In this document: piece after piece, positions 3,060-60,400 of the stretch | How the letters are laid out: each line of letters starts with the position of its first letter | Position numbering within the stretch: position 1 is the stretch's first letter | Source of the DNA: Bilabrum cf. latius | Lineage: Eukaryota | Direction: 5' to 3' | DNA: 64,000 nt | Assembly (NCBI GenBank): GCA_965178125.1 | Contig: OZ237741.1 | Coordinates: 930,001 to 994,000, forward strand | The notes under the pieces: model-generated | What the model saw: the letters and a program-made list of their open reading frames with translations, nothing else | Database searches by the model: none | Told to the model about the DNA's origin: nothing | Position numbers and translations under genes: made by a program

Positions 3060-3302
3060 ACTTTGAGCAGTATCCTGTGCAGAGGCCTCGCGGATCCGTG
3101 CGAAATGTGTGGAAAAAGTATTGATCTACTAGTAGATTCTCCTGCCAACAATAGAAACCGGACTTCGGAACCGGAACCCCGGGGCTACGGTACGAAAAAA
3201 AGAGGACCTGATCGCACAACAAGCGAATTGATGCAAAGGTGCATCATATAAACAACAACACATGGGACCAGCGGGCGATGGTCGCCCCAGACCACTCAGG
3301 AT

Positions 3303-4805: not shown

Positions 4806-4951
4806 GCGATGTCACATACTAGAGTGCTTTTCGCTACGGTAGTTTTGCACTCATAACAACACTTTATAAACGAAGAAATACAGATTTTGCGAGACGTTTG
4901 CTCGGGCTCACGATCATGTCGCTCACGATCATGTCGCATGATCAGATGATC

Positions 4952-27332: not shown

Positions 27333-27469
27333 TTCGGGCTTGGCATGCTCAAGTTAGTTTGTAGTTTGGTATCTTTGTTCGGCCCGCAGATCCTTTTTTG
27401 GCTCCGGTCCGACATTCGAAAATCCTAGGCAAGCACAATTCCTGCCCGGGATCGAATGAGTGTGCAGCG

Positions 27470-28595: not shown

Positions 28596-29872
28596 TCACC
28601 CGCCAAAGCCCCCGCCCATGGCAGCCTCCCACGTGGCCCGCAGCTGCTGGTGCGCCTGCCGAAAATACTCCACGTCTCCCGCGCTCAGATTCGTGTTTGT
28701 GGCATCCCCGTACGTGTAGAATGTCATGCACATGTCGTCCGACACGATTGCCTCTGCCGGGTGGTAGCACAGCCTGGATGTGCAGCACATCTTGGCGCAT
28801 GGGATGTTGTTCTTCTTGGACAGGGCCTCCTCGATCTTCATCATGTTTGACACCCCCATGCTGTACACCCCGCGCCTCCTGAGCTTGACGTCAAACGTGC
28901 TCGCCCGAGCGTATCCTTCAACGAGCCCGATATTCACGATCTCGTGGAAGGGGTTCCAGCCTTGCCTGCCGAGAATGATGAAGCCCCAGACAAAGATGAG
29001 GCTGAGCAACCCCAGCACGGAGTCCAGCACGAACGTAAGGATAGCAGAGATGGGGAGGATGTACACGTACAGGGCGATCGAGATCAAGATGTCGTAGAGC
29101 ATCACGACCAACGAGCCAAAGTACAGGCAGATGCCCAGATTTCGGCACCCATCAGTCCTGGCGTCATCATTACCGCACCTCCCGCCGAAGCAACGGCTGC
29201 AAAGTAGCCACAAGATTGGAACATTACACACAGGACGGTTCGACGGACTCGGCATGCCAAGCAGAAGGGTTGACAAGCGGTCCATCGCTCCCACGAACAG
29301 ACTTGGCAATCCCCAGAAGCCATATACGACTCGAGATTGCCAGGCTGCTACAAATGTCTTGCCACTGACCGCAGTACCGCCCCGAAGTTTATGGATCATT
29401 CCTTGAATAGCGGTGCGCTCGTCGTCTCCTTCGAGCAAATCTCCGTACCGCTGCAGTCTTTCTTCCAGAACGTCAGCGGTAAATCGAGGGAAGAGAGCCT
29501 GCCTCTTTGAGGTGGCTGGAAGTTTGGCAGAGTCGATGCAGTTGCAACTGCGCAGAGCCGAGAGGTAGCCAGCCATTCAGGACCGTATGGACGGTGGTGT
29601 AAACGCAATCAAGCAAACTGAGTAGCGTAAACTCACAGGCATTGGCACTGATAACACCCATTGACGCGGTACATCCACTGCATGAGGGTTTCGTAGTCCA
29701 GCTCGGTAAAGTCAGACGCTGCGCCTGTGCCTCCGTACGAGCCACCGAAGCCGGCATTTCCTGCTGGAGCGGGAGCCGGCTGAGCCGTTCCTTCCTCTGC
29801 AGACACGAGAGCCTTTGCCGATTGATCATTTGAGCCTGGCGCTACGCTTGCGTACTGTGATCCCTACGACAT
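28596..29872 (-). CDS. Multi-pass membrane protein of unknown function; exons 29872-29637 and 29547-28596
   Basis: Starts ATG TCG TAG GGA. The GTGAG...GCAG intron 29548-29636 joins CYQCQCL-CNC in frame. Hydrophobic helices in the C-terminal half; ends TGA. Confidence 0.7.
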
Positions 29873-30112: not shown

Positions 30113-30353
30113 TGGCAGCCTCCCACGTGGCCCGCAGCTGCTGGTGCGCCTGCCGAAAATACTCCACGTCTCCCGCGCTCAGATTCGTGTTTGTGGCATC
30201 CCCGTACGTGTAGAATGTCATGCACATGTCGTCCGACACGATGGCCGCTGCCGGGTGGTAGCACAGCCTGGATGTGCAGCTCATCTTGGCGCATGGGATG
30301 TTGTTCTTCTTGGACAGGGCCTCCTCGATCTTCATCATGTTTGACACCCCCAT
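30113..30353 (-). pseudogene. Near-identical 241-bp duplicate of the 3' coding end (28619-28859) of the adjacent membrane-protein gene
   Basis: Direct comparison shows only a few substitutions; the rest of the gene is absent. Confidence 0.8.
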
Positions 30354-32339: not shown

Positions 32340-34583
32340 ATGAACAGAAAACGTAAAAGAAACGAGTTGTACTCTCTTGTGCGGGACAACATGCTTGCTG
32401 ATGAGCTTTACACTTCCGGCAGAAGCGCTGACGGGACCACGTCCGGCCGAGCTAGAAAGCAAGTGCAGCGACTGGGAATCAACGACAAACCAGAGTCTCC
32501 GAAGCGGAAGAAGCCCAGGAAATCTGAACGGGGCAATCAAAATTCTCGCTCAGATCGCGGTCTGCTCCATGGGAAAGTGGTGGAGTGGAAAGCCTCTGAC
32601 TCCGTCGAGGCGAGACCCTCCAGGATTCACGGTGTTGGCCTTTTTTGCACCGAGCATATTGCCGCGAACGAAGTAGTAGGGTATATTGGTGGTATCCTCC
32701 GGGATCTCAGCGAAGAGGCTGGGCGCCTTCGTGCAAAGAAAGGTACGGTGTAGGTCACGGTCGTTCGAAATGAGAAAGGTGAACTCGTGAGGTGGTCCTC
32801 GAAGCCGGAAGACTCGGATGATCACGGTCCAAAGAGACATTGTATCTGTCGACGCACTTGGGAGGAGGATCAAAGCTCAATGGTCGAGTGCACTGGCTGC
32901 AAAGAGTGGTTTCACTTCGGCTGCCTTGGATACTAGGTAGGTCCAGCCGCCTCACTGGAGCTTCCCGCAGCCGATGAATCTGGAGCGGCGGCCGGCCAAG
33001 CAAATACACCTACAAGCACCTCTGCATCTTCGGCCAGCCGCCTGCGGTCTGCTTCCCCGCTCGCTGAATCGTCGTCTGCGGCGAGCGAGCAAAGCGCCAA
33101 GCCAGTGCCAGTAGTGCGGGACGCCTACGGTCGCGTAGTTGACGTGGAGAGCGACTGGAAATGCCCCAAGTGCGCGCCCCCGGAGAGACTGCACCGGGAA
33201 TCGTCCGCGCCATCCGTCGCCCCCGTGCACCTGATCCACCTACCTGGGAATGGAGGCAGATTCGCCATCGATGCCACCCCTCCCCCGGGACAGAGCCCGA
33301 AGGAAGCACTCGCTGCCAACCCATGCAGGTTCATCAACCACTGCTGCCAGCCGAACTGCAGGCTAGAGCTGGAGGAACGCACGGGCAGGGTCAGAATCAG
33401 GGCCATCCGCGCCATCAATCCACCGGTGGAGCTGGTGGCGTCCTACATGGTGGTCGACGACAGCAGCGGCGGCCCCGCCTCGGCTAGCGACCCGCCCCCG
33501 CATCCCAAGTGGATACCATCCGTGGCAAGAGGGGGGCAAATCCTGTGCTGTGACAAGTGCGCTACCGAGCACAGGGACACGGATGCCGCGTGGTACAGAA
33601 AGTGGGTGGCCTGGAAGGGCAGGCGGCGGCTGAAGAAGACTCAGTCGAGAGCTGGAGCTGGAGCTGGAGTGGGATTTGCTGGTTGTGCAGGTGCAGGTGC
33701 AGGTGCAGGTGCAGGTGCAGGTGCAGGTGCAGGTGCAGGTGCAGGTGCAGGTGCAGGTGCAGGTGCAGGTGCAGGTGTCAAACAAATTGAGGGCGTGGTG
33801 CCCATGTCTGCATCGATGCCGAGTGGGGTTGCTACGATTAGATTGGCCGTGTCAGAGCCAGCACCAGCACCAGCACCAGCACCAGCACCAGCACCAGCAG
33901 CACCAGCACCAGCACCAGCACCAGCACCAGCACCAGCACCAGCACCAGCACCAGCACCAGCACCAGCACCAGCACCAGCACCAGCACCAGCACCAGCACC
34001 AGCACCAGCACCAGCACCAGCACCGGCACCAGCACCAGCACCAACAAGCAGCTCTTCATCCACAGCATGGCCAGCCAGCACGGGTCTTGCTGCAGGAGCA
34101 ACAAGCAGCACGTGTCTTGCTGCAGGAGCAACAAGCAGCACGGGTCTTGCTGCAGGAGCAACAAGCAGCATGGGTCTGTCTGCAGGAGCAACAAGAAGCA
34201 GCAGCCTGAAGAACGACTTAATTCAACGAGGTCTGTCACCTTATCCCCGGAAGGCAATTCTAGAGGCGCCCGCGCTTTCGGATGCGTCACCACTGTCGTG
34301 CAATGCAACGGCAGGGCCGGAGACAGCTTCGATGGTGAGCGCCCAATCGGCCTAGAGCCAGGCATGCGTGATCCGCGGAGTCTTGGCCGGCAGCGGGGAT
34401 GAGAGCACACCCCCTCTGCCGCCCAGATCTTTGCATTACCCGGCTGCTGGTCAACTGGCACAGCGCGCGGAGAGTGGGGGTGGACCGCGCGACCTGCGCG
34501 TTGTCAAGCAGGCAGGTCCCAGCCAAGTCCTGTAGAGCAAGGCAGGGAGCCAAGCACCACAGAGCAAAGCAGAGAGCTCATGA
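32340..34583 (+). CDS. SET-domain protein with a PHD finger inserted within the SET domain
   Basis: SRIHGVGLF ... CICRR...MVECTGCKEWFHFGC...WKCPKC ... RFINHCCQPN...ELVASY. Four in-frame TAG; ends TGA 34581. Confidence 0.85.
33687..33776. repeat. (GCAGGT)15 coding microsatellite, poly-AG
   Basis: Seen directly. Confidence 0.95.
33858..34043. repeat. (CCAGCA)n coding microsatellite, poly-PA, about 30 units
   Basis: Seen directly. Confidence 0.95.
34077..34196. repeat. 30-bp coding tandem repeat, 4 copies (STGLAAGATS)
   Basis: agcacgggtcttgctgcaggagcaacaagc repeated with minor changes. Confidence 0.9.
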
Positions 34584-36410: not shown

Positions 36411-36627
36411 GAGCTGCTCATGAATGAAAGTTGCGTAGGAAAGGCCCTATCGTATTGCACTGGCCACCGCCATCGCACCGAGGCTTTGAATCCTGCTGTC
36501 TCTACGAACCTATCCACCGCCGACGAACTTTCGGTCCAGAAACGCCGGACACCGTTCAATTCAGATATTCGCCTTGTTTCACGTGGAGACAGGCCTTCTC
36601 AAGTGAAATTCTCTCGTATCTAATAAA

Positions 36628-37775
36628 ATGATTGAGCAGGTAGCCACAATGGGAGCGTAGCTCGAGCAAGCTTTGAAAGCAGGCAGACCGGCGTACGAGA
36701 AGATGTTCCTGTTGCTGGAGCCGGTATTGGCCCCTTTGCGCAAGGCAGTGAACTTTGGTCAGATTGAGCAGGATGTTTTCCACGTAATGGTACCAGAGTC
36801 ATCGCAAGAATTCATCGATGCGAGGCCTTCGAAGGGTTGGGCCTTCACGAGCTTGGAGCATGCTGCGGTTCCCTTTGCGGTGTACGCCATCATCGTTGTG
36901 GCTGGCCTGATCCGTTTCGGCACGTGCGGTGCTGCCAGAAAGGACCCAGCTGATAAAAGGAGTGCTGTTACCAAGCTGATTCAGAGCCCTCTACGGGTCG
37001 TGATGCTGCTGTACAACATCGTGCAGGTAAGATTCGACTAAGGTAGCAGTTGGCGATGCCACCCTGCACAGCTGCGTAGCGTAGCATTTATTCATGGGGT
37101 GCAACGATATTTGTACCAACTACGCTTCTCTTTCTCGTGTACCTGCCGCAGGTTGCTCTTTGCACTTGGATGGCCGTCTTTGCGTTCGGCATCCACGCCA
37201 ACAACAGCCTGAACATGTTCGGCTGCAACCCTGCGCTCAAGGGCGGCGAGGCCGACGACCTGCAGTTCGTCCTCTGGGTGTTCTACGTTTCCAAGATCCT
37301 GGATTTCCTCGACACTGTCTTCATCGTGGTCAAGGGCGAGATCAACCAGTTTTCTCTGCTGCACATCTACCACCACTTCAGCATCTTCGCGTTCTACTGG
37401 CTCAACGTGAACGTGGGCTACCACACGGACATCTACGTGACCATCATTTTGAACGGGGCCATCCACGCGTTCATGTACGCCTACTACGGACTCAGCCTGG
37501 TCGGTATCCGCCTGCCCGGCATGCTCATCACGGTGGCACAGATGACCCAGTTCGTCGCCATGATGACACAGGGATGCGTGATTGCTTTCACTCCCGGCTG
37601 CAAGTACCCGTCCACCATCGCTAAGGTGTATGTGGTGTACATCCTATCGCTGTTCATCCTATTCGCCGAGTTCTTCGTGCGGAAGTACCTGTGCGGCGGC
37701 AAGGGCAAGGGCAAGGGCAAGACGGAGAGCAAAGGCAAGAAGGGGAAGAAGGGTAGGGACAAGAAGAACCAGTGA
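36628..37775 (+). CDS. Fatty-acid elongase (ELO/GNS1/SUR4); intron 37027-37151
   Basis: FYVSKILDFLDT, LHIYHH, HAFMYAYY, TVAQMTQF and C-terminal KKxx. TAG at codon 11; ends TGA. Confidence 0.93.
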
Positions 37776-43046: not shown

Positions 43047-44972
43047 TCATGCCAGCAGCTCCACCACGTGCCGCGCCGACTCGCGAGTGTGCTCGTCGGC
43101 CGCATCGCAGCTCACCACACGGGCCAGATGATCCCCACCCTTCGCCCCGGCCACGGCTGCCTTTCCGGCCTCGCTGTCGCACAGGTACTCCAGGCTGCGG
43201 ATGCACGTGTGCCGCAGGGACGCGATGGCCGGTCGGAAGGCTCCGCTGATGGAGCCGTCCGTGGCTTTGGCGTCCTCCTGGCCGCAGCTGGCTGCCACAA
43301 GAGCATCCACACCACCTGGGATGGACAGCACGGCTTCCCGCGCCTCGTCCGATCCGTCCAGGCACTGCTTCAGTGCGATGGCTGCCAGCGTGCGCCGCAC
43401 CACGTCCACACGCTTGCGCATGAAGCACGCGGCCAGGTCAGCCACAGCGGCCTTCTTCTGCGCGCTCTCCACAACCGATGACCCGTCCAGAGAGCCGCCC
43501 CCGACGTGATACCCAGTGCCATCATCGTCCTCGTCATCCTCATCGTCCTCATCCTCGTCGTCCTCAGCATCCTCATCCATGCGGCGCAGCACGGCTTCTG
43601 CCGCGCTCAGCGCCTCCTCCATGGTCATGTCGCGCGCCCCGGGGGCGGCCTTGTCCATCGATGCAGGCGCCTCACCCACGGCCTGCCCGGAGGACATGGC
43701 CAGCAGCATGGCCAGGAGGCCCGGCTGTTTGGCAATGGCGGCTTTGGCTCTGCCCGAGGCATCATCGCTGGCCAGTCGCGCGAGAGATCCGAGAGCCTCT
43801 TCCGAAGCGTCGGCCCACTCGCCCTGCATCATGTCCATGAGTATCTTGAGGCTCGTTGCCAGGCTGCTGCCGTCATCATCGGAAACTGAGGCTTGCTCGC
43901 TGTCCGGTCTCTCGCTGTCGCCTGCAGAGCAGGCTGCGGAGGAGCCAGATGCTGTGGCCGCGTCAGCTGCATGGATCATTGATGTGACGTTTCCATCGTC
44001 TGTCTCTGGCAAAGCCGGGCCCCTGCCCAGCACCTGCTGCGCCGTCCTGCACTGCCCATGCAGCTCCATGCCTGCTTCGTTCAGGCCAAGCATCGTCAGC
44101 CGGTACACGTTTTCGAGCAAGAAGGCGTTGCCCTGCTGCCTGTCGAACTCCACGGCGAAGTGAGGATCTCCCTCCACATCATCCGACGGCAAGCCGAAGA
44201 AGCGAACCTTGAACTGCACCCACTGCCCGAGATCGTCGTACAGGTAGCAAGCGATCCTTCCTGCGTCCTTCTTCACCGACATGCGCGTCTTGGCGGCTCT
44301 CAGCAGTGCCACCACGTGATTGAATACTGTGTCATAGTTTGCACCAGTCACCTCCTGGTGGCTGTACTTCAGGAAATACGGATACGGGGGCATGGGTGGC
44401 GCCCCTGCCGGAGTTGCCGCGGTGGAGGGAACGGCTGCCGAGTATGCCTTGTCACCTGGCTGGAAGCCTCGCTTGATGGCTGCGATGTGCAGAAAGTGGG
44501 GGGGAGAAACGTCTGACGAGCATGCGGCTGCAAATTGCGCTTTCTTTGACCACAGGTCTATTTGGGGTCCTATTGACACCTTGCAGCACCGGGTAGTAAT
44601 GCCGAGATCGAACACATCAAAGCAGCTTCGCGGAGCGGACTATGTCTGCAACGATATGATCACTGGTCCAATAAATATGATTTCTGTCTCACTTGCTCCA
44701 GTCTGGTCAACGATCCGAGGGCTGTCGCCGCTATCGCCATCCAGTCCACCAGCACTCCTGGACACCTCTGTCGCAGCCTTCATCACGTGGCGGTGGTCGT
44801 CCATACCCAAAGCCACATCATCAGAATCCATGGCGCGGTCAACGTCTGCATCTGTTGCGACGTCCCTGTCGCTGCTGTCGTGCACCGTGCCAGCCTCAAC
44901 CTCTGGCAGCCCTCCGAACGCTGCCAAGGCCGCTGCGTGCTTCTTTCTCATCATTGACTCGCTGCTCGACAT
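43047..44972 (-). CDS. KA1-like plus ARM-repeat protein, tandem copy 1; intron 44480-44692
   Basis: GTGAG...GCAG intron in frame; FAVEFDRQQGNAF followed by ARM-like helices; ends TGA. Confidence 0.75.
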
Positions 44973-45477
44973 TGTTTGATCTTTGAATAGTTATCTGCTG
45001 ATATACTGAGTTTCGGATCGTGGGCGCAAAAGCAAGTACTCAGGTGTGAGCGCAAGAACGTTGTCGAATTTCTTCACCTTTCTGTTTCGCCACTTCCGGT
45101 TTTCCTTTAAGCACCGAAAGCCCGTTCCCGGATATGTCTCTTTGGGGAACACGAAGCTCCCTATGGACACGAACCCGGGCAATCATGATTTAATAGAACC
45201 TGCACGCACGCTTCGGCTTGATATGGCAGCACAATAACTTAGGGGTGCACCCTCGCAGTGACCTGCTCATCAACACCACACTCCGCGCTGTGCTACCTCT
45301 TGGCGGCTAAAAATGTCTAAAGAAAACAACTACAATTTGAACTTGAGTTTCGCTAATCAAGCAACTATTCTCGCACTGCTACCCCATTGCACGCTAAACG
45401 CCCTTGCATACTCCCTGCAAACTCCCAAGGGGACTCGCACCAGCCGACCACATTTGACTGTTTCCAGCGCTGGCCGC

Positions 45478-47498
45478 TCATGCCAGCAGCTCCACCACGT
45501 GCCGCGCCGACTCGCGAGTGTGCTCATCGGCCGCATCGCAGCTCACCACACGGGCCAGATGATCCCCACCCTTCGCCCCGGCCACGGCTGCCTTTCCGGC
45601 CTCGCTGTCACACAGGTACTCCAGGCTGCGGATGCACGTGTGCCGCAGGGACGCGATGGCCGGTCGGAAGGCTCCGCTGATGGAGCCTTCCGTGGCCTTG
45701 GCGTCCTCCTGGCCGCAGCTGGCTGCCACAAGAGCATCCACACCACCTGGGATGGACAGCACGGCTTCCCGCGCCTCGTCCGATCCGTCCAGGCACTGCT
45801 TCAGCGCGATGGCTGCCAGCGTGCGCCGCACCACGTCCACACGCTTGCGCATGAAGCACGCGGCCAGGTCAGCCACAGCGGCCTTCTTCTGCGCGCTCTC
45901 CACGACCGATGACCCGTCCAGAGAGCCGCCCCCGACCTGATACCCAGTGCCATCGTCGTCCTCGTCATCCTCATCGTCCTCATCCTCGTCGTCCTCAGCA
46001 TCCTCATCCATGCGGCGCAGCACGGCTTCTGCCGCGCTCAGCGCCTCCTCCATGGACATGTCGCGCGCCCCGGGAGCCGCCTGGTCCATCGATGCAGGCG
46101 CCTCGCCCACGGCCTGCCCGGAGGACATGGCCAGCAGCATGGCCAGGAGGCCCGGCTGTTTGGCAATGGCGGCTTTGGCTCTGCCCGAGGCATCATCGCT
46201 GGCCAGTCGCGCGAGAGATCCGAGAGCCTCTTCCGAAGCGTCGGCCCACTCGCCCTGCATCATGTCCATGAGTGGACCGAGGGCGTCGGCCGGATCGGCT
46301 GACGTGGCCTCTGCGGCAGATCCTGTGCTGATTCCTCGTGCCATAGATAGGGGTGCAACGGCATCTTCTGTCTCTGGCAAAGCCGGGCCCCTGCCCAGCA
46401 CCTGCTGCGCCGTCCTGCACTGCCCATGCAGCTCCATGCCTGCTTCGTTCAGGCCAAGCATCGTCAGCCGGTACACGTTCTCAAGCAAGAAGGCGTTGCC
46501 CTGCTGCCTGTCGAACTCCACGGCGAAGTGAGGATCTCCCTCCACATCATCCGACGGCAAGCCGAAGAAGCGAACCTTGAACTGCACCCACTGCCCGAGA
46601 TCGTCGTACAAGTGGCACGTGATCTTGCCCGAGTCCTTCTTCACCGACATGCGCGTCTTGGCAGCTCTCAGCAGCGCCACCACGTGATTGAATACTGTGT
46701 CATAGTTTGCACCAGTCACCTCCTGGTGGCTGTACTTCAGGAAATACGGATACGGGGGCATGGGCGGCGCCCCTGCTGGAGTTGCCGCGGTGGAGGGAAC
46801 GGCTGCCGAGTATGCCTTGTCACCTGGCTGGAAGCCTCGCTTGATGGCTGCGATGTTTCGGCATGAATCGAATACAGGATTTGTGATTGGGGAAGGTATG
46901 CAGTACTGCCATGTTGCACCGGATCGCGGGGAAACCGGAGACAGTCGGTGAACATGCTACCCTGGAGAACCCGCCGATAGCATGGGTATCATGTCCAATT
47001 CGCAAACTGTACCGTAGCCTACAGCATACAACAACACAAAATCGCGGGCTTGGATGCAAAGACCTCAAAAATGGGTGAACAACTGGCACGCATCTGGGTC
47101 CGTTGCGTACAGCCAAGCAACACCGTAGGACAACCCTCAAGCACGCCAGTACGACCTACTCGGATCAAAAGAGACAATAATATATGCACATGGATAGTGA
47201 CTTGGGCCTTACCTGATCCAGGAGCATCGATCCGACGAATCTCCTCGTCCACGGCAGCACTTCCACCAGCGCTTCGCACAACATCCTCGCCCTGCTTCAT
47301 GGCAACGCCTCGCCGAACCTCTTCAATGACCATATCGTCTGCTGAAGCACCTTTGTAGACATCACTGTCGGTGCCATCATCTCTGTCACTGACGTGCTCG
47401 CCAGCGTGGTCTTCCTGCTCGTCAAACGGAATCCCTCCGAAAGCTGCCAATGCAGCGGCGTTCTGGTCCTCGGTGGAGAATTCAGCTGATGCAGCCAT
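45478..47498 (-). CDS. KA1-like plus ARM-repeat protein, tandem copy 2; intron 46848-47212
   Basis: Exon 2 is nearly identical to copy 1; same intron position and phase; ends TGA. Confidence 0.75.
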
Positions 47499-47975
47499 AG
47501 TTTGCAATCAAAATATTGTATGTGTGCAACCGAAAGGTGCCCTGCTTGGAACAATCTGCCTGTGATGAGCCTTCGAACGCTGTCCTGTGTTTGTGGCCGT
47601 CAGTATCTGTTCAGTTGAACAGAGCGTGGCCACCCTAATGTGATTTCAAGTAAGTAGTAAAATAAATTCTAACGATTAGCTTGAAACACTTAGCAGGACA
47701 TCCTAGGTGCAAGAGTATTGTCTTTCCCACCTCAGACGGCTTCCGCTGTTTCCCGGAATCATCAGAGTTTCACTTTTGGCACTTTCGCGAGCGACAAAAA
47801 GAAAAAGAGATAAACAAATGGGTTCCCGAACGTTCTTTGAGGGATCCAACTGCAACTGCATATCGTTCCTCTTACTGCAAAACGCATGGAAGAAATTGCA
47901 GTGATACTCACGCTTTTATGTTGTATATGCATACCACTATGCATTGGATTAACCTCATTTAGCAAGAATGACCAA

Positions 47976-49070
47976 ATGGACGGTCACACGGCGAGTCTCA
48001 CCAGAATTGCTGAGATTGGTGACGGAAGGATCTTGTGCCGGGTGTAGAGGGCAAGTACCGGCATGATACAGCAGGTTTCGGAAGTAACGACTGCTGCATT
48101 TATGAACAGCCCCTCCTACCTGTTCGTCTTCAGTGCTATTCCTGGGAAGGCCGCAAGGCGGGATGCCCTGCGGTTCCTTTTTCGCCAAACCCTTAGATTG
48201 CATCTCTACATTGATCCGGGCTGCTTATACGTTGTATTAGACGCATCCAAAAGCTCTAGTAATGCACGTGACAAGGATGCAGGCGGCAGTGCGGATGCGA
48301 TCGTGTGCAGCTTCGAACTTCGTCGCTCAGAGCGCAAGGTCAGCCTCTGGAACATGGTGCAGTTCGGGCTAGCGAAGGTACCCTTCCTATACGGATGGAG
48401 CACCCTCACTTCACTCCTCACGGCAGCGGGAGCCTTAGATGAGCAGCTCGCGTTGGCCCAGAAGCACCTGCTCCGAATCGGTCCAGGAGCAGCAGGGCAG
48501 CAGCAAGGCAACAGTCGGCCGGCTTCTGAATCGGGACGAAAACGAGGCTCTGCCCGCATGTTGCAGCTGGAACGCATGGTAGTATCACCTTCGGTGTAGG
48601 GCAAGGGCATCGGCAGCAAGGCGCTGGGTACAGCCCTCCGCGCGATCGAGCTATCCATGGCAGTAGGCGGAAACGCGACTGAACGACTCGGCACGGTTGG
48701 AAGCGAGAGCGAGGGCGAGGGCGAGGGCGAGGTGGCACCTGCCAGTGAGCTCATACGTGAAATCAAAATCCGTCCATCGGCGTTGCAGTCCCTCCGTGGC
48801 ACGTACGGCACTCGAGCAGGGGTCACCCTTACCACGCAGGAGGAGCGCAACGAGGCCTTCTACAAGAGGCAGGGGTTCAGGACGGTGTGGGCTGGGGAGG
48901 CGTACAAGGTGCAGCACTGGGTCATGGCGAGAGCGATGGTACCTGGGAGCCGTCAGGCTGATAGCACTGCACTGCGGCGCGATGACAAGCAGGGTCCGGA
49001 GTCTCCACGCCCTGAGGATGGCTCAATTGGCGGAAAGGTTGCATCGAAGAGGCGGGGCTCCAGGGCATGA
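47976..49070 (+). CDS. GNAT-family N-acetyltransferase
   Basis: QLERMVVSPSV*GKGIGSKAL (motif A) and LTTQEERNEAFYKRQGF (motif B); ends TGA. Confidence 0.88.
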
Positions 49071-49440
49071 CTGAATTGCTCAGTTGGTGTGATCAGCCGC
49101 CATGTGTCATGAGTGTCGTCTCGTCTTCTGTTACTCCTCAGGCTGGCTCGCCCAAACTGGCCTGCTGGTCGCCTGTCGAATCGACGCGGGACGATCGACG
49201 AATCATTGGATCCCGGGACCCTGACCGGACCGCATGCACTCACTGCTGAACAAAATGCAGTATAGACGGTCTTTCATGTGTTTGTGCTTCAAGTTGGTCG
49301 GTCATGGAGGCCAATAGCGGCTTGTGGCCAGCAAGGCCTGCAGCAGCGGCAGTTGCACTGCACTGTACGATGAACCAGCAGACCAGAGTTCCAGTCTAAT
49401 CAGCTCAAAGCAACGCAGACACCGTAGTATGAACTGAATT

Positions 49441-51126
49441 ATGCTCCATTCCCGGCTGACTGCCCGTGCTACCGGCGCGAAGCTATTGTCACGGCTATGC
49501 CGATCACTCTCGACCGCAGTAGTTCCAACTTTGGATCTGTCAACAGCAGGCAGGCGTGGCCACCTGGTGCTAGAGAGAAGCGATGGATCGTAGACACTAC
49601 ATTGGGGCGACAAGATACCGGAGGGTGATAGCATCGCGGCCGACTGGAGGGTGCTCCATCGACGGCCTGCGCTCATTGGCAAGCAGTCCGCAGCCCCTGT
49701 GCCTGGTCCCGGCCGGGTTCTTGTTCTGAAAAAACCTGGAATATCCGACACAACACGCATGTTGTGCAAAACAGCCGATAGTCTTGCTGCAGAGGGGATA
49801 GAAACGCTCATTGAGCCGAATGTTGCCGTCGGTGACCGGGCCGAGCTATCGTTTGCTGGCGGCGCGGTGGTTCGAACGTGGGACCCAGAACAAGCAAGCA
49901 TGGTGGGTCAAGCTGTAGATCTTGTTGTTACCCTTGGGGGGGATGGCACTATTCTGTTCGCCAGCTCCAAGATCGGAGCGGATCTTCCCCCGGTGCTCGC
50001 GTTCGCCATGGGCACCCTCGGCTTCCTGACACCGTTCGACACTGAAGATCTTCAGGCTGCCATCCGGCGCACTCTACGTGGCGATGTTCCAGTTCATTGC
50101 AAGCAGAGGATGCTCGCACACATTGAAGGCGAGAAGCCCGCCGTGCAACCGGAGGACGCGTTGCAACCAGACAGCCCTGCCCTCGTCGTCAACGACGTGG
50201 CTCTCTCCTTCGCCTACCCAGGACAGCGACCGCCGCCGATCGTGCGGTGCCGCGTGAACGAGCGAGACATTCTCACGGGCGCGGGCGAGGGGCTGATCAT
50301 CGCGACCACCACTGGGAGCACCGCATACTCGCTGTCGGCGGGCGGGCCGCTCGTTGCTCCCACAGTCCCTGGGCTGCTCATCACACCCCTGTGTCCCGCT
50401 GACAGGTCAGACGCAACTGCTGCTGTTGTGTCAGACCAAGCAACCGTAGTAGTGGAGACGAGGGCAGCCATGCCGGCCGCACCGGGCAGGGAAGCGAGCA
50501 CAGAAGCACCTGCTCAGACGAGCACCGGAGCACCTGCTCGAGAGACCGAAGAAACGGCTGCCCATCAGGAGCCGCATTGGGACCCCGCGCAGCTCTTTAG
50601 CCCCAAAAATCGGCTATGGCGAACTTCCATCTACGAGCAGTGGCTGGACGCCGAGAAAAGCGAGCGGCCAACCGGGATATTTCCAGCGGGAGAGAGGGCG
50701 AGGATCGAAGAGGCGACTGCGGCGCTCGAGTCGCCACTTGCACACCGTGACGGTAATAGCAAGCCGGACGGCCCATTAGCTGGTCATGAGAGATCCCAAA
50801 GGCAAAGCAACGCGGGAGCGGACTCGGAGGCAACTACCCCACTCGGCGCTGCCGATGGCGAGGAGCAGGTGCTTCAAGCGGGTGCTCACTCAACAGACAC
50901 GAGCGGGTACACGAGTCTTGCGGTAGATATCGACGGGACGAGCGTGGGTCCGCTGAGACCAGGGGCCAGGCTGGTGATCAGGCCTGCAGACAGCCCGCTA
51001 GTGACAGTCAGCGCGCAGGCTCCCCTGCAGGATTGGCTCTCGGACGTGAGCAAAGTGCTCAATTGGTCCAAGCCGCCTCAGCGGAGGGTCGAGCTGAAGC
51101 GCATCGGAACGGCAGGGCATGCATGA
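49441..51126 (+). CDS. NAD(H) kinase, probably mitochondrial
   Basis: LGGDGT, GTLGFL, VVND, GLIIATTTGSTAYSLSAGG; Arg/Ser-rich N-terminus; TAG 49591; ends TGA. Confidence 0.9.
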
Positions 51127-51357
51127 CCCAAGCAATGGACGGAAATTCGAAGAAGGCATAGATTTGTTGATTATATTCAGGAATTGCCACAAACCCAACT
51201 CAACAGTAGACCCATGCAAGTGCACTAGAAAGGGCAGCATGCGCCGCAAGGCTGCAAGCCACCCTAATTCTCCTAGCACTTTGGGCCCTGCTGCAAGCCC
51301 CTACATCATCTCCGCCCGTGGGGCACCAGATCGGCCAAGTCCGGTCCAAAGGCTCGT

Positions 51358-53643
51358 TTAAAGCTCCATCGGAAGCTTGTCTTCCAATTCCGAGTCCGAT
51401 AGAGAGCTCAGCTGCATCTTGGATTCGGGGCCCGGAAGCGCAGTCGTGAACCGATCACTGCTGCTGCCAGGGGTGGCCCCTTTGCCTGCACCGACACTGG
51501 CGCCAGTTCCTGCACCACCTCCCGCACCGGTGCCCGCGAGCCCACCAGTGCGTGTACCCTTCCGACTCTGCCGATCGGTCCCTCTCTCTAGCCTCCCCCC
51601 TGCAGGGACCGACCCGGCGACGAGCACAGCTGCCGAGGGGTTCACCAGCCGCAGCGGTCCGCCCCCTCGTCCCTCTTTACCTGGAACATCGCTTCCCTTT
51701 GACGCGTTGAGGTCGAGGGTGCCCTTGGACCCGCTCGCCGAGGGGAGCAAGTTGCTCACGAACTAGAGATTGGACACACCATGCGTGCCCCAGGCCACTC
51801 CGCTCTGGCTCTGGCTCTAGCTCTGGCTCTAGCTCTGGCCCAAGTCAGACCGCCGGGTCAGCAGCACTTCGTCATCTTCCTATTCTTCACACCCACCCTC
51901 CTCCCCGCCCCCGCCCCCGCCCCCGCCCTACCCACGGTGGCGGAGCAAGCTGCCGTTGGGTTCCATGATCTAGCCCATCCCCACGATGGGGTGCACAGCG
52001 GACCCCCCGCCGCTGTTCCCCGGGTTGTTCCCTGCAGCCACCTCGCCCTCACCCCTGCCCTTGCCGTTGCCGCCCTGGATGGCACCCTCCTCACTGCCGC
52101 TGTTCCTTCTCTTCTTCGTCCGCAAGGACGGCTGCCACTGCCTCAGGTAGTCGCTGATGGCCCACACGAGTTCCCAGGTGGCCCTTGTCGTGGCAGGAGG
52201 GGGCAGGGCGTACCCATACGTCTCCTGCTCGTCCACCACACGCTGCAGCCTCGTCCTGCTCCTCCGAATGGACTCCTCGGGGCCCTCATCGCTGTTCCCT
52301 GAGTCTCCAGGGCACAACTACCACTTGATCGCGGCGCCCACTCGCACCAGCACCGCCAGCCCAAGGAGACCCAGGGCACACAGAAACACGACGACCAGCT
52401 GCCTGTTGGCGTTGTCCGGAACTGCGCCTGTGCCGCTCGCATCCTGGTCCCCGAACCACTGGATCTCCATCTAGGTGTATGCTTCTGTCTTCCACGTCTT
52501 TAGGATGGCCCGGTTGATTGTTTCCCGCAGCCAGGAGGGGGCAGCGGGACCCACCGCGATACCGTACTGCTGTTCCTCAAAGACCGGTCCAACCACGCTG
52601 AAGGCACCCCCGCCGCTATTCACAAAGTACGCCAAGATGGGAAAATCGTACACAACGGCGTCGCCACTCCCGCCCTCGAACGACTCTAAAGCGGCAGTCA
52701 CCGAGTCGTACGTGCTGACCTACACCCCGACTCCGTGTCTGCGTACGTACGTCTCCGCGGTAGAGCCCACGGGAACATTGACTGTCTTGCTTCTCAGGTC
52801 GCCAAAGCTCCCGATTTGTGAGACGGGGGCCTCCTGCAGCATGTACACCGTGACGAGTGCGGTCACCACGATGGTGAGCAGGGGGCCGAGCACCTTGAAT
52901 ACGAGCAGCGCTGGCTTGACGAAAGGTCCTTCTGGCTCCACGGCGTCCTGCCCGAACAGGCCGAGGAGAGCGATAGACGCGGCGGCCTCGAATTTCTGGT
53001 ACTCTGTCCCGCCCTCTGGCCATGCCTTGACTGGGCCTCTCGAGCACTCCTCCAGAGGGACGAGCAACAGTCCGCCGGCGAGGGCGCACACTACAATCAC
53101 ACCGAGGAAGAGTCCCGCCGCCTGGCCCAACGTTCCAAACAATGCAAAAGAGACTGACAGCAGGTCCGTCTGCTCTCTGGCGAGCACGCGGAATCCAGAC
53201 ACGAACCACGAGTGGCTGAAGTCGAGGTTGAAGGTGCTCTCTCTCGAGGACGTCATCGTGATCGCCGTGTGGCTGATGTCCACCTCACCGAGCCCAGCTC
53301 CTCGAAGCATTTCGACTGTTGTGGGGTACTCCGTGAAATTGAGACACGAAAAGTCGATGGGATCGTTCAACGGTGGCAGCAAGGAGTTGTCACCCCGCTG
53401 CTCCTCGATAGCAGCAACTTCCTGCTGCACCGCAGGCACAACCATCTCTGCCCAATACTACATTGCAAACCCTGTGTATGGGGCTGTGAGCTCGATCGGT
53501 AGAACGCCTTCCGCGTCGTCTCCGCTCATGGTGAATGGAGGCGTTATTTTTACTCCCATGTTCAAACATCGGAGAGCCAACGCATGATGAAAACAAAGCA
53601 TCAACACAGAAACTGATATTTCCTTGCGGGCAGACTCGGTCAT
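51358..53643 (-). CDS. Ionotropic glutamate receptor-like channel without an ATD (S1-M1-P-M2-S2-TM)
   Basis: AITMTSSRES.FNLDFS, TM helices, LRSKTV.V..GSTAE, DAVVYDFPIL, QYGIAV, INRAIL...WFG. About 10 TAG; ends TAA 51358. Confidence 0.85.
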
Positions 53644-53828
53644 GTTCAAATTGTGGAATCCACGAGCACAAATCAAGTTAATGCAATTTGCAAGGGGACA
53701 GTTGAATCTCGTGCGCCCAACAGCAGCTACTCCCGTATTATGGCTACTTGAAAAATAAAAGATTATAGCAGTTTACCTCGCTTCCAATCGATTTGTCGCC
53801 TGGGTCGCTAAATATCCTAAGATGGTAT

Positions 53829-53850
53829 GAGAGAGAGAGAGAGAGAGAGA
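53829..53850. repeat. (GA)11 microsatellite
   Basis: Seen directly; intergenic. Confidence 0.9.
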
Positions 53851-54152
53851 AAATAGAGTTTTCGCACGCAATTCAATACCAGAGACAATCCGAGGACTGC
53901 CACCAAAGTAACGCGCACCTTAACAGGGGACCAAGAATGGCGTGCACACTGGTTGGTCGCAAGTTCCGGGCCGCCGGTTCGGCCCGGGGCCCCTTCTGTC
54001 TTTGGGTGGACGAGTGTCCCACAAGCCGGTCACAGCTTGAGTGAGGGCCCTATGCAGCTAATCCAGATACTACTTTCTAAGTTCATATGATCTATAGACA
54101 CAACAAGCTACAACCAAGTCTGGGGATGTGGATCTTTCTCTGCCATGCTCGC

Positions 54153-55650
54153 TCAGAAGCACTTGCGGTGCACGATCGAGGGCCCGCTCTCGTCATACTC
54201 GTCCTTCGAGATCCACATGCTCTGGAAGGTGGAGAGCGAGGACAGGATGGATCCGCCGATCCACACCGAGTACTTCCTCTCCGGAGGTGCCACCACCTTG
54301 ACCTTCATGGTCGGAGGTGCGAGGGCGCTGATCTCCTTGGTCAGCCTCTTCTCGATGTTGGGGAACATGGTGCTGCCACCGGACAGCACAATGTTCTGGT
54401 ACAGGTCAGACCTGATGTCCACGTCGCACTTCATGATGGTGTCGAACAGGGTCTTGTGGATGCCATCCGCCTCGAGGCCGACCTGGCTGGGCTGGAAGAG
54501 GGTCTCGGGGCACCTGAAGCGCTCCGAGGCGATGGAGATCGTGTTGCCGTCGGGCAGGACGTACTGCTTCTCGAGCTCGGACGAGGTCTCGGCCTTGCCC
54601 ATCTCTGCGTCAAAGTCCTCCGCCACGTAGCAGAGCTTCTCCTTGATGTCGCGCACGATCTCGCGCTCGGCGGTCGTGTTGAATGAGTGCCCGCGCTCGG
54701 TCAGGATCTTCATCAGGTAGTCGGTCAGGTCCCGGCCCGCGAGATCGATCCTCTTGATGGCGTGGGGCAGCGAGTACCCCTCGTAGATGGGCACGGTGTG
54801 CGACACGCCGTCACCCGAGTCAAGCACGCAGCCTGTCGTGCGGCCAGAGGCGTACAGGGACAGCACGGCCTGGATGTTGATGTACATGGCAGGGACGTTG
54901 AAGGTCTCGAACATGATCTGGGTCATCTTCTCCCTGTTGTTCTTGGGGTTGAGGGGGGCCTCGGTCAGCAGCACGGCGTGCTCCTCGGGGTTCACGCGCA
55001 GCTCGTTGTAGAAAGTGTGGTGCCAGATCTTCTCCATGTCCTCCCAAGAGGTCACGATACCGTGCTCGATAGGATACTTCAGCGACAGCACACCGCGCTT
55101 GGCCTGCGCCTCGTCGCCCACGTAGGACTCCTTCTGGTCCATGCCTACCATGATACCGGGGTGCTTGGGGCGACCCACGATGGAGGGGAAGACTGCCCTT
55201 GGTGCGTCATCGCCTGAGAAACCGGCCTTCACCATGCCGGATCCGTTGTCAACCTGCGATAGATGAATACGAATGCATTTGACTAATAAATAGTGGCGGC
55301 TATGCTTTCACGTATGCTACCTGGTGTGCGTGTGCCAGAAATGCGGCCATGCTGAGTCGCCCATGTTCGGCGGCCCCCCAGAGGCATCGCAGCAGGCGCG
55401 TCGCGGATCTGACGCGCACATTTGCAGTTATTTCTATGAACTATGCAATTGGACGGTGCGACTGGGGCTACGGCCTGCATGCTGGCGAGCCAAGGGCAGG
55501 TCGCACAAGGTCGCCAGCTGTCGACCGACACTCGCTTCCATGAGGCCGAGATGGTGCACCTTGCGCGTGCTGTAGCAGTGGCAGACAAGGCGCTCGGCAG
55601 CTTGGCTTTGCTTAACTACTCACTACGAGGGGTTGGCTTTCGTCTTCCAT
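54153..55650 (-). CDS. ACT: Actin, 375 aa; exons 55650-55624 and 55253-54153
   Basis: [21 protein letters not shown]...SIVHRKCF then TGA; GTGAG...GCAG intron 55254-55623. Confidence 0.98.
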
Positions 55651-56327: not shown

Positions 56328-57317
56328 TCACACTCCAGCCCCCCCAGTAGCAACCCCTGCCTCCGCGGTACCTGCGGGCGCCTCGCCTCCGTTGTCGTGC
56401 GCGATGAGAAGGCGGATGGCCCCCACGGCCGTGTCGATGGCTGTCACCTTTGTCTCCGCTGCCAGCTCGGGCGACGCCAAGAACGACTCGCTTTCTTGCT
56501 TCTTGTCGGTTTCGCTGCTTCCCTCCTGCTGCTCGTGCGTAGACCCGATCACCGCGAGCACGACCCCGGCGCGCAGCCCGCGCAGCATGGACACGGTGTA
56601 CAGCGCGCTCGCCTCCATCTCCGTGGCAAGCACGCGGCATTTTTCGTAGGAAAGCCACTTCCTCTTCGTCTTGTCTTCGTCAGCAGTGTGCCCGGGCAGC
56701 TCGGAATAGAAGCTGTCCTTGCAGTGAGTCGTCCCAACGTGTGCCCTTCGCTTAAAGCCGCCTGTTCCCGCTGCATTGCTGCCCGAGGCTCCGGCAAGCG
56801 TCTCTGCCAGCTTGTAGCTTTCCAAGAGCGCTGCTACTACAGCTGGCGTAGCCGTGAGCGGCACCTCGGCTGGAACGTACGCCATGGAAGTACCTTCATC
56901 CCGCACACAGGCGTTGCTTACGACGACATCGCCAGCTGCAACAGATTTGTGAGTGGAGCCACACGTGCCCATTCGAATGATTGTGTGAACGCCATGCCGA
57001 GCAAGCTCTTCGAAAACGATAGCGGCAGAAGCAGAACCAATCCCATGGCTGCACACGCTCACGCGTTCACCATCCAGTGTTCCTGTCCAAATCCGGTACC
57101 CCCTCCTATTGGCTACCTCTTTGCCGCCTTCAAGCATTGCACCTATCTTTGGGACTCGGTCTGGGTCCCCACAGACGATGCAATACCCACCAATGGACCC
57201 CTCGGGAGCTGCCAGGTGCATAGTCAATGCGCCCCCTGTTCCTGAAGCGGCTTTGCCACTTTCTGGTATCTCGATCCATTCGCGTGTGTCTGACAGTTTG
57301 GGAAACATTGATAGCAT
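56328..57317 (-). CDS. udp: Uridine phosphorylase (PNP/UDP family)
   Basis: CGDPDRV, SHGIGSAS, IRMGTCG, RDEGTS, KDSFY, EMEAS; ends TGA. Confidence 0.9.
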   Translation of the reverse strand: MLSMFPKLSDTREWIEIPESGKAASGTGGALTMHLAAPEGSIGGYCIVCGDPDRVPKIGAMLEGGKEVANRRGYRIWTGTLDGERVSVCSHGIGSASAAIVFEELARHGVHTIIRMGTCGSTHKSVAAGDVVVSNACVRDEGTSMAYVPAEVPLTATPAVVAALLESYKLAETLAGASGSNAAGTGGFKRRAHVGTTHCKDSFYSELPGHTADEDKTKRKWLSYEKCRVLATEMEASALYTVSMLRGLRAGVVLAVIGSTHEQQEGSSETDKKQESESFLASPELAAETKVTAIDTAVGAIRLLIAHDNGGEAPAGTAEAGVATGGAGV

Positions 57318-57486
57318 GGTACGCCTGGATGCGAGCGGCGCCTGGATGCGGAAAGTGTCAAACAAATTCTGGCGCTGGATCCAACGGAGCGAACGCGACA
57401 GCGAAGGTTCCAGGTTCGCAATATCAAACCAGGCACCGGCAGCCAGATACTGGCAGCAACCATGCAGTTGGCTGCCAAAGCTCCTA

Positions 57487-60400
57487 TCAGCTTGAGGCCC
57501 CTTCCTGGCCAGATACCGCGGCCCCCCCGCGCGCATTCACGCGGCCCCCAAATCCACCGAACAGCAGGTAATCCTGGACGGGCTGCAGCTAGTTGGTGGA
57601 CACGCAGGCAAAGACCCACCTCGCGTCAACGACTGGGCGCATGTAGGCAGTCCCAATGTCCAGCACCCTGTCCATGATCTTGCTGCTGCGAGCATCCACT
57701 GCCCCTCGTGCTTGGCCGCCAGCCGCCTTTGCGCTGCTTCCGTAGCTGGGCAGCACCTTGGCCGAGTGGATGATGATGCAATCGGTCAGCAGCTGTCTCC
57801 TCATCACGTCCATCTCCCAGCGGGCCCGCTGCAAATTCCAGAGCTGCACCGATCGGGACGCGCGGCTTCCGGGCGCGAAGGCCTTCTTCGGAGGCGGGTC
57901 TGCCAGCACCCCGCCAGTGCTCCACTCCCGCACAGAGTCAGCCAGCGCGGCAACATCGTGCTTTCCAACCAGGGCAGACGCCTTGGCAGATCTTCCCGAC
58001 ATGGAGAACCTGACCGGGGACGTTGACATCGACGTGCTCGCGCTGGCTGACCGAGACAGGGATCCTGCAGCGGCGGCGCTGCTGTCGGTGCCAGACCTGC
58101 CGTTACCTACCGCTTGCAACTGGCTGCGCTGCACCCTGTTCCCTAACCCTACCACGTCGTACCCATGCTAAAGGGCTTGCGAAACTCCAGACGTGAACGA
58201 AAGGGGCGACGTCGAGGCGCCAATGGAGGAGCAGCCCAGTCGCGTGCCCAGGTCAGACCCGGTTGGAAACTCGTCCGACCCACAGTTGGACCGCGGCGGC
58301 TGCTCGTACTTCCTCGGTGCACTGGACGGTCTGCCGCGCTGCTAGGACCCCAGCTGTGCGAGGTGCCCCTTGGAGGCACTCAGCTCCATGCATGGAGGCA
58401 CCGCGGCACACACAGGAGTCACGCCGTCGCGCTGACCGTAGCGAAACACAATCTCTGCAGAGTCTGCGCGCGCAGCAGCAGCAGCAGCCCCATCGCCCCC
58501 ATCTGCCTGCGAGACCACGCCAGCTCCAGCGCGGCCCCGCGCGAGGAAGTCTTTGCAAGAAACGTCGTAGTTCATCACATCTCGAGGGTGTGATGCAGGC
58601 CCTACGGCTCTGCGCATTGGTGCTGGCACGATGTGCTGCTTGTCGAGTTTGATGCCTACCTTGGAGCTTGACAGGGTCGGGACGGAGCATTTCTTCTATC
58701 CCTGGCCCCCGGTGTCTGCCAGAATGGTCACGGGCCCAAAGTCGTCCCCAGAGACGATCACCTGCTCCTTGAATTCCTCCGGATCGACGCCATCAGGGAC
58801 CGTGCTGCCACACCGCTCCACCGCCATCGCTGTCCTAAGGGACCCTGCCGTCTTCCGCAGGTGCATCTGCACATCTTTGTCCCGCAGTATCAGCACAGTG
58901 GCGCCCGCGGACTCCAGCACCGACCTCAGCGAGTTGGTCTGCACCTGGGGCTCCTCCGAGTCGGCGATCACGACCACCCATCCCCGCAACAGCCCAGACC
59001 TGCCCCTCATCCTCGTGACCCGGGACGCGCGAGGGACCCTGAAGCCCTCGGTGTCCGCGTCCACCTCGAACTCGTCCTCGGGCACCCAGGCCTGGACCTT
59101 GGACATGCGCTCCACCCAGGACGCGTCAAGCACCCAGCAGCCCTCGGCGAGGCCCCTGAGCGCCTTGGTGGTGCGTCGGCACGCCCGGTGGACCTGCAGC
59201 GGCACTGCAACCTAGCCTGGTTTCAGTTTGGGTGCCGGAGGTCCGCCGCCGGCCTGCTGCCTCTTGAGCAGCTCCAACTTGCTCAGTTTTCTGCCTTCCT
59301 TTGATCCACCGCCCGCAGGTGAGGCGGCTTTGCCGTCGTTCAGCTCCAGCACCACGTGAGTGTGGGCCTGCTTCGTGGTGCAAACGACGTGGGTGGTGAC
59401 ACCGCGCTCGAACTTGTCACATACCCGCGCGCCACCCTAGAGCTTGCCTTCTTCGATCAGCTCGTTGAGTTGCATCTTGAGTTCCTTGATTACCGGTGCC
59501 ATATCGCTTCCAGACGTCAGGGCAATCACAATGGGCAGCCTGTTGGCCGGAGGGCAGTCAGGCTCGCGCACCCTTCGCTCAAGAGGGACCGCCTTGCCCT
59601 CGTCCCTACCGAACAAGATCGGCACAGTGGCCTCCAGAGACTTCTCCATGGCGAGGTAGGACCAAACCTTGGCTTCTTTCGTGTCTGCGTCCGGCGCTGC
59701 ATCCGGGGCGGCCCCGGAGGCATGCGCGTACTGAAGGTACCTGGGTACCTCTGGTGGCGGCAACCTGTGCTCCAGCCCGGCTGCACCAATTGACTCCCAG
59801 GCCCGAGTGAGATATTTCTTGACGGTGTCCGCGCTAGGCTTTCCTTCGTCTCCGACCTCGCTTGCCACCTTTGCCAGTGAGAAGAACTTGGAATTGCGCC
59901 ACCTGTTCAGCGGCTTGCTAGCGGTGAACGAGGGGCTTCTTTGCCTGCCGGTGGCGTGCAGCACCCCCTGATGCATCTGCTTCGCTTTGGCTTCCTGCTG
60001 TTTCTTCCAGGCCAGTGCAGCCGGCGGAATTAGCTCTGTCTTGCCTCCAGGAGGCGTCCTGGCGACCATCTCCAGATCCGAGCTACTGTCGCTATCTGTA
60101 TCAGAACTGCTGCTACCACTGCCGCTGTACTCGCTGTCAGAGGAGCTTCTTTTCTTTGACTTCTTGGCTACCTTAGCCTTGGAAGCACTTGTTTTGCCTG
60201 CATCCGACTCGTCGCTGGATGACGAGATATTTCCTACCTTGCCCTTGGCCTGGCCCTTTCCCATAGCCTTCTCCTTGGTACCGGCACCCGCGCCCTTGTC
60301 CGAATCAGAATCCGAGTCCGACGAAGACGAGCCATTCTCAAGCTCAGCAACGTGTTTCAGCAGCGCAGGCGCACGCTTAGCTGCCTTTCTCTTGCTAGGA

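Follow-up and report, generated by a model that had tools for sequence, protein, structure and literature searches.

Locus of the channel gene and its repeat

The window analyzed here is the whole stretch of 64,000 nucleotides taken from the Bilabrum cf. latius contig OZ237741.1 (positions 930,001 to 994,000 of the forward strand, assembly GCA_965178125.1), which has a GC content of about 60% and is dense with long open reading frames (ORFs) on both strands. Its minus strand carries an intronless gene for a ligand-gated channel subunit resembling the ionotropic glutamate receptors (iGluRs), and the C-terminal tail of this subunit harbors a short repeat in which TAG takes the place of CAG. Direct read-out of the minus strand from 51837 to 51802 gives, in order, CAG AGC, TAG AGC, CAG AGC, TAG AGC and two further CAG AGC units. 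The alternating TAG/CAG repeat described in the initial annotation is therefore exact to the letter, and it falls in the frame of the channel ORF, of which it forms residues 603-614. With TAG read through, this frame stays open for 804 codons from stop to stop (51361-53772). We consider it very probable that the element is a young coding microsatellite, (CAGAGC)6 or (Gln-Ser)6, in the low-complexity tail of an iGluR-like protein, and that it belongs to a GC-rich, intron-poor eukaryote in whose nuclear code TAG specifies Gln and TAA and TGA act as stops. The features of the locus are listed in Table 1.

Two descriptions of the array at 51802-51839 were obtained with Tandem Repeats Finder, one with period 6 (6.3 copies, 87% matches, score 62) and one with period 12 (3.2 copies, 96% matches, score 69). 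The longer period fits the array better, which places the two TAG units exactly one double unit apart. The period-6 units run head to tail, and their frame is confirmed by flanks conserved in the homologous protein P0151, as expected of a coding microsatellite. An S/T-Q cluster domain consists of several SQ or TQ dipeptides crowded within a short stretch; with TAG taken as Gln, the tract holds five SQ dipeptides (six QS units) in 12 residues and belongs to this class. It was the only tandem repeat with an in-frame TAG found within the window.

The letters of the tract were compared with contigs assembled from public sequencing runs. In all four runs, which represent four studies and of which one may be the source of the window itself, contigs span the tract together with its unique flanks and show no differing letter, which indicates that the TAG letters are real. 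Across the broader interval 47100-54100, no differing letter was found in the four runs at a likeness of at least 90%, and hence no allelic TAG/CAG variation. Runs with small shares (X9-X11) are excluded from this comparison; none of the public runs is registered as RNA, two being tentatively classed as such. The two TAG codons might also be explained as sequencing or assembly errors favored by low complexity, as microsatellites are error-prone and many further run contigs match just the 38-43-nucleotide tract with two to three differing letters. These tract-only contigs suggest comparable hexamer repeats elsewhere, whereas the contigs anchored by unique flanks agree in four of four runs, and in-frame TAGs pervade the window as well as related metagenome contigs. 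The chance that the TAGs are mere errors is thus vanishingly small.

Sequence comparison of the encoded protein places its core, approximately the first 500 residues, near the iGluRs. The best solved relative is the bacterial iGluR homologue 2pyy (2e-18, second lobe), and GluN2B chains of NMDA receptors align at about 1e-3 over residues 130-397, which cover the membrane segment and the second binding lobe. The Pfam solute-binding domain SBP_bac_3 matched weakly (22.1 bits against a cut-off of 26.4), and the Pfam channel domain (Lig_chan) was not matched in the channel ORF when the window ORFs were scanned; the homologue P0001 carries PF00497 and PF10613. Given the weak Pfam match, we describe the predicted protein as iGluR-like and make no claim of family membership. 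Its layout would resemble that of the iGluR superfamily, including the prokaryotic GluR0-type proteins, with a putative two-lobed binding domain split by a membrane segment and followed by a further helix and a tail, the helices being placed by eye. It differs in having no amino-terminal domain, and it shares with P0001 and P0004 a module located after the M4-like helix. This module (52100-52320, minus strand, residues ~455-505) is conserved even in these two distant homologues, which are 33-35% identical, and judging from this conservation it may serve regulation or assembly in a family-specific manner. The tail is presumably disordered and cytoplasmic.

Table 1. Features of the channel gene and of its Gln-Ser repeat (positions in the window)
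Feature	Position	Strand	Details
Intronless coding sequence, iGluR-like ligand-gated channel subunit	51361..53643	-	761 codons from the first ATG (putative start); 10 in-frame TAG
TAG, residue 62, in a conserved stretch of the first ligand-binding lobe	53458..53460	-	CAG in L001 and L003; Q in P0003
Last hydrophobic helix, M4-like, residues 418-440	52324..52392	-	Placed by eye and by analogy with iGluRs; conserved in L001, L003, P0001, P0004 and P0006
C-terminal tail, residues 441-761, rich in Gly, Ser and Gln	51361..52323	-	7/10 of the TAG codons of the gene; colinear with P0007 and P0151
TAG, residue 558	51970..51972	-	E in P0007 and P0151; own TAG of L001 one column off
TAG, residue 572	51928..51930	-	Q in P0007 and P0151; CAG in L001
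Hexanucleotide coding microsatellite (CAGAGC)x6, (Gln-Ser)x6	51802..51837	-	TAG instead of CAG in units 2 and 4
First in-frame TAG of the repeat, residue 605 from the ATG at 53643	51829..51831	-	Q opposite in P0007 and P0151
Second in-frame TAG of the repeat, residue 609	51817..51819	-	R opposite in P0151; P0007 stops two codons before
TAG, residue 627, in a conserved non-repetitive stretch 18 codons past the repeat	51763..51765	-	Q in P0151
TAA stop of the channel gene	51358..51360	-	P0151 ends at the same residue; coding GC pattern lost beyond
Run contigs spanning the tract	X1 record 1; X5 record 14; X6 record 17; X7 record 30		0 differences each

Translation of the tail

Homologues were gathered in three ways. 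An exhaustive search of representative proteins gave 1635 matches at E <= 1e-3, of which 150 were listed and eight used (P0001-P0007 and P0065); a search of shorter proteins with the tail region gave three matches; and an earlier homologue search with the whole protein had returned a single match, low-complexity words being dominant in it. The first two of these searches recovered fragments from close relatives at 77-92% identity. In the conserved core, P0001 (480 residues) aligns at 33% identity (E 7e-84) without a gap through the TAG positions 62, 308, 391 and 442. Since truncation at residue 62 would leave no channel, the TAG codons of this gene must be translated.

For the tail itself, an alternative reading would hold that the tract is untranslated, lying in a 3' untranslated region, an intron or a decaying pseudogene, so that its TAGs would be ordinary stops or noise. 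P0001 and P0004 both end near residue 508 and leave the tail without a counterpart; TAG is denser there, with six in 253 codons compared with four in the first 508; and introns do occur in this genome, where the ELO and MoaC genes are split across reading frames. The composition of the stretch nevertheless argues against this reading. Among the 253 tail codons past residue 508 there is no TGA or TAA in the ORF frame, where approximately 5.5 would be expected (Poisson P ~0.004), as opposed to four and seven in the other minus-strand frames, and six of the seven minus-strand TAG triplets of the stretch fall in the ORF frame. The GC content of these codons at the first, second and third positions (0.65/0.59/0.74) shows the coding pattern of the conserved core (0.61/0.44/0.71), which is absent beyond the TAA. 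If TAG is sense, no TAA or TGA interrupts the frame from the core to 51358, and a ribosome must cross the tract.

The closest relatives extend this picture to the repeat itself. P0151 (206 residues, 77% identical) is a single open frame, colinear with the window from 47 residues before the repeat, through the repeat and on to the same last residue, and P0007 (185 residues) extends from the last membrane helix as far as the repeat, which it enters. With one flanking G on each side, the repeat comprises 14 residues and is of equal length in the window and in P0151, which has Q at the first TAG position, R at the second and G for the fifth S of the window. In P0007, too, the first TAG position is occupied by Q, and the fragment breaks off two codons further on, opposite a CAG of the window. 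Judging from the fragments P0002 and P0005 (see below), this break probably marks a TAG codon, a contig end being the alternative. Together, the open frame, the coding GC and stop statistics and the colinearity of both proteins indicate that the tract is coding and that the TAA is a genuine stop. The initial annotation had named a location in a 3' untranslated region as the finding that would undo its interpretation; the colinear tail, the coding third-position GC and the lack of TGA and TAA place the tract within the coding sequence. As TAGs also lie at core residues 62, 308 and 391, where the homologues align without gaps, we regard an untranslated tract as highly unlikely. The repeat is missing from the tail of the orthologous gene at the related locus L001, from which it follows that the microsatellite is young.

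TAG as a sense codon and its amino acid

The use of TAG within coding frames extends well beyond the channel gene. We examined 22 stop-to-stop ORFs in the window, 19 of which contain in-frame TAG, amounting to 104 TAG beside 480 CAG and 152 CAA; were TAG to mean Gln, it would represent about 14% of the Gln codons in these ORFs. In an AGC-type kinase, the C-lobe and the C-terminal extension continue in frame past TAGs, which occupy positions that vary among the solved structures, so that these codons demonstrate read-through and leave the identity of the residue aside. In an EngA-like protein, two GTPase domains flank three TAGs, and the second GTPase domain and the KH domain follow in frame after them. 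The ORFs free of TAG are a valyl-tRNA synthetase (24210-27329, plus strand), actin (54156-55307, minus strand) and a nucleoside phosphorylase (56331-57536, minus strand). In actin and the valyl-tRNA synthetase, the third-position GC is near 0.9 and CAA is almost absent; comparison of these two proteins with a protein atlas gave generic matches. The lack of TAG in such high-GC3 ORFs fits its role as a rare, non-preferred codon and suggests that it is avoided in highly expressed genes.

All examined ORFs that end within the window do so at TGA (15) or TAA (6), the remaining one running off the window edge. TAA thus behaves as a terminator rather than as a sense codon in six of the 21 complete ORFs, one of which, the channel gene, is supported by a homologue, and freeing TAA hardly lengthens the ORFs under alternative stop sets. 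ORF length as such proved uninformative as a test of the code, since in GC-rich DNA freeing TGA lengthens random ORFs more than freeing TAG. A further alternative is that TAG is ambiguous, being read as Gln inside genes and in places as a terminator near the 3' ends of mRNAs. Context-dependent termination codes have been documented (PMC4967479), and two ORFs contain a TAG at most 16 codons before their TGA, namely those of the EngA-like protein (codon 921 of 931) and of a SET-PHD protein (787 of 802). With TAG occurring about once per 100 codons, chance alone would place approximately three TAGs this late in a set of 22 ORFs. P0151 ends where the window has its TAA and not at a TAG upstream of it. 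We consequently hold an ambiguous TAG to be improbable.

Related loci for which DNA is available show that this usage is not confined to the window. A scan of metagenome contigs confirmed three such loci (L001-L003) among at least 598 pattern matches; they have 54-57% GC and 58-72% protein identity to the window in the core, and the channel is the only gene that they have in common with it. L001 and L002 differ by one nucleotide in the gene and are taken as the same species, so that L001 alone was counted. The orthologous channel genes contain six (L001), six (L002) and two (L003) in-frame TAGs. Each relative having TAGs of its own, the code appears to be common to the clade, and the TAG sites vary between species. 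For the database fragments P0002 and P0005, the end coincides exactly with a TAG codon in the DNA of L001, which indicates that gene callers working with the standard code cut the channel gene at TAG. Public protein sets accordingly hold channel fragments truncated at TAG (P0002, P0005 and probably P0007), and annotation of such genomes needs a table in which TAG is Gln; the combination of TAG as Gln with TAA and TGA as stops corresponds to NCBI table 15.

The amino acid was examined in an alignment of the window, L001 and L003 with five close fragments and three distant homologues. P0002 was aligned and left unscored, as it belongs to the L001 lineage, and P0007 and P0151, near-identical to each other, were weighted 0.5 each. 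Eighteen TAG columns were scored (ten from the window, six from L001 and two from L003), one of them without an aligned residue. The summed BLOSUM62 score at these columns was 71 for Q, followed by E (21), R (18) and K (17.5), and all other residues were negative. Among the residues of the close relatives, the share of Q was 33% where the column holds TAG and 55% where it holds a true Q. At E, R and K columns of the same alignment it was 3%, 5% and 7%, respectively, and at D, L, S, Y and W columns 0-4%, so that Q is enriched roughly 5- to 10-fold at TAG columns relative to those of E, R or K. Individual sites point the same way. An L003 TAG just before the last membrane helix faces Q in all five other aligned sequences, including the three distant ones. 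Likewise, in a GT22 (Alg9-like) mannosyltransferase encoded on the minus strand of the locus at L002 1-2145 (Pfam 4e-39, seven in-frame TAGs), the TAG directly after the invariant YVHPDE block faces Q in three of three homologues; this protein had no match among solved structures. The data on Gln identity come from one gene family and one gene of a relative, and on comparison Gln fits them best.

At the codon level, the three sequences with DNA were compared over the reliably aligned core, which provided nine columns and 18 pairs. The partners of TAG were CAG (4), CAA (2), AAG (2) and GAC (2), with ATG, GCC, GTG, GTC, ACA, CGT, TAT and TGT occurring once each. The initial annotation had proposed that exchange of TAG mainly with codons other than those of Gln would speak against its reading; Gln codons turned out to be the commonest partner (6 of 18), and, in combination with the homologue comparison above, TAG as a synonymous variant of CAG is upheld.

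Several observations weigh on the opposite side. In raw counts, the majority of the core codon pairs (12 of 18) is non-Gln, and the relatives have no Q at most TAG columns, TAG being located mostly at variable alignment positions. At the seven window TAG sites that P0007 and P0151 cover, the residues are Q at three, R at two and E and D at one each: these closest relatives have R at 442 and 609, E at 558 and D at 588, the latter beside an indel. Within the repeat, P0151 thus supports Q at just one of the two TAG positions. P0007 and P0151 could, moreover, be paralogues or homeologues of one genome instead of orthologues. For several of the 104 TAGs, the first ATG of the ORF comes only after them, so that they may be non-coding. 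Neither the window nor L001-L003 yielded any tRNA gene in tRNA scans.

These non-Gln residues in the closest relatives lend some substance to the reading that TAG is sense and stands for Glu, Arg or Lys, in which case the repeat would be of the form QS-xS-QS-xS with substitutions tolerated in a disordered tail. An L003 TAG lies opposite K in the window and L001, and opposite K in four of the five sequences aligned at this site, and codes with UAG as Glu and UAG as Leu exist in other eukaryotes (passages of PMC11687900). The score sums, the Q fraction at TAG columns against that at E, R and K columns, and the two TAGs that face Q in five of five sequences and in three of three homologues, all favor Gln over these residues, so that a different amino acid seems to us decidedly improbable.

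The weight assigned to the repeat has to be revised in this context. The initial annotation had presented it as database-free evidence that the residue is Gln, and its conclusion, a coding tract with TAG as Gln, stands; the repeat alone carries little of the burden, which falls on the homologues. A C-to-T change at CAG produces TAG irrespective of its meaning, most substitutions are tolerated in a disordered low-complexity tail, the 12-nucleotide period suggests a single mutation copied by slippage, and the R of P0151 at one TAG position indicates that the site is not tightly held as Q. The repeat is accordingly a small supporting observation, and a UAG-only code across the clade would be the weightier point.

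An additional TAG was noted at residue 253 of a GNAT acetyltransferase-like ORF (47841-49067, plus strand), within a V-x-G-K-G-I-G stretch. The Pfam match of this ORF is weak (3.8e-6), and no useful match was found among solved structures (PDB). On this weak match, the codon would occupy the Q/R position of acetyltransferase motif A, and it was not counted as evidence.

Decoding, known codes and further features of the window

Under the preferred reading of TAG as Gln, two CAG units of the repeat would have become TAG by C-to-T transition, most likely through one mutation that was subsequently copied by slippage of the 12-nucleotide double unit. As TAG and CAG would both specify Gln, the change would be silent and the protein would still read QSQSQSQSQSQS. 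The R at residue 609 in P0151 could result from CAG to CGG in a single step and is consistent with a Gln ancestor. Decoding would require a tRNA-Gln with anticodon CUA, pairing with UAG and not with UAA and presumably arising from tRNA-Gln(CUG), and an eRF1 in which efficient recognition of UAG is lost (both after passages of PMC5304391). Pfam scans of the window ORFs contained no eRF1 gene, and no Rfam family matched in the window.

Reassignment of UAG alone to Gln, with UAA still a stop, is described in passages of PMC5304391 and PMC11687900 for the fornicate Iotanema spirale and the ciliates Protocruzia tuzeti, Hartmannula sinica and Trochilia petrani. The window resembles these codes in having in-frame TAG in conserved genes, Gln as the best fit and TAA as a terminator, and differs from these lineages in its GC content of ~60%, its paucity of introns and its use of TGA as the commonest stop (15 of 21); our impression is that the compact, GC-rich architecture of long ORFs is unlike that of a ciliate or fornicate. 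Reassignment of both UAR codons to Gln is known, from passages of the same two sources, in many ciliates, ulvophycean green algae, hexamitin diplomonads, the oxymonad Streblomastix and the aphelid Amoeboaphelidium protococcarum (PMC11687900, PMC5304391). In common with these codes, the change from stop to Gln in the window lies one transition from CAG/CAA and presumably involves a mutated tRNA-Gln; unlike in them, TAA is not sense, as the channel stops at TAA where P0151 ends. A few other lineages have UAG alone as Leu or Ser, or UAA as Lys together with UAG as Glu (passages of PMC11687900 and PMC5304391).

The repeat itself has a parallel in ciliates, in which S/T-Q clusters and Q-rich motifs have been expanded by stop-to-Gln reassignment (PMC10942620). 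Here too an SQ cluster lies in a presumably disordered region and is partly written with a reassigned stop. It differs in being a 36-nucleotide microsatellite restricted to one sub-lineage, and the parallel is one of sequence alone that does not imply function.

The code is thus of a known kind, and it is the lineage that may be new for it. Our literature searches yielded no description of a GC-rich non-ciliate lineage with UAG-only Gln, a result that does not by itself make the code of this organism unpublished. We tentatively raise the possibility, of which we are less than evenly convinced, that the window and its relatives (P0003, P0007, P0151, L001/L002 and L003) represent a GC-rich, intron-poor clade undescribed for UAG-only Gln with TAA and TGA stops and fast turnover of TAG/CAG sites. 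If true, this would add a non-ciliate, high-GC case to the few lineages in which UAG and UAA are uncoupled, and would offer several species at graded divergence in which codon capture might be watched in progress. Reassignment of UAG with UAA kept as a stop is rare, a handful of lineages being named in passages of PMC5304391 and PMC11687900. As the two codons are normally coupled, each new case helps to show how the constraints set by release factor and tRNA can break. Such turnover is illustrated compactly by this locus, where units of a neutral microsatellite switch between CAG and TAG and comparison with the gene of the relatives reveals exchange of the two codons in both directions.

Further features were recorded across the window. 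Two tandem paralogues without Pfam match (43050-44990 and 45481-47064, minus strand) are 97-98% identical over blocks of 810 and 495 nucleotides, with 26 differing codons (17 synonymous and nine non-synonymous), and both contain an acidic DE-rich repeat. A 241-nucleotide duplicate of 98.8% identity (28619-28859 and 30113-30353) comprises the C-terminal part of the ORF at 28599-29576 and an apparently partial copy. Both pairs were considered as a codon test and discarded, the aligned blocks being free of TAG and hence uninformative. The ELO-family (fatty-acid elongase) gene (36607-37772, plus strand) and the MoaC gene (27311-28235, plus strand) each extend over two reading frames, which indicates that introns or frameshifts exist in this otherwise intron-poor region.

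Other tandem repeats were also found in coding regions. Perfect hexanucleotide arrays of GTGCAG (x15.5) and CCAGCA (x31.5), along with a 30-nucleotide repeat, lie at 33685-34200 (plus strand), where they give rise to Ala-Gly and Ala-Pro runs in the SET-PHD protein tail. At 15628-15760 (minus strand), a 60-nucleotide tandem repeat (2.2 copies, 95% matches) duplicates a 20-residue peptide within a PH-domain ORF of 2403 codons. Finally, the kinase ORF at 3306-4811 and the ORF at 1794-3302, which has a signal-peptide-like start, share the same frame with a single TGA (3303-3305) between them and, from this arrangement, are read as two genes.

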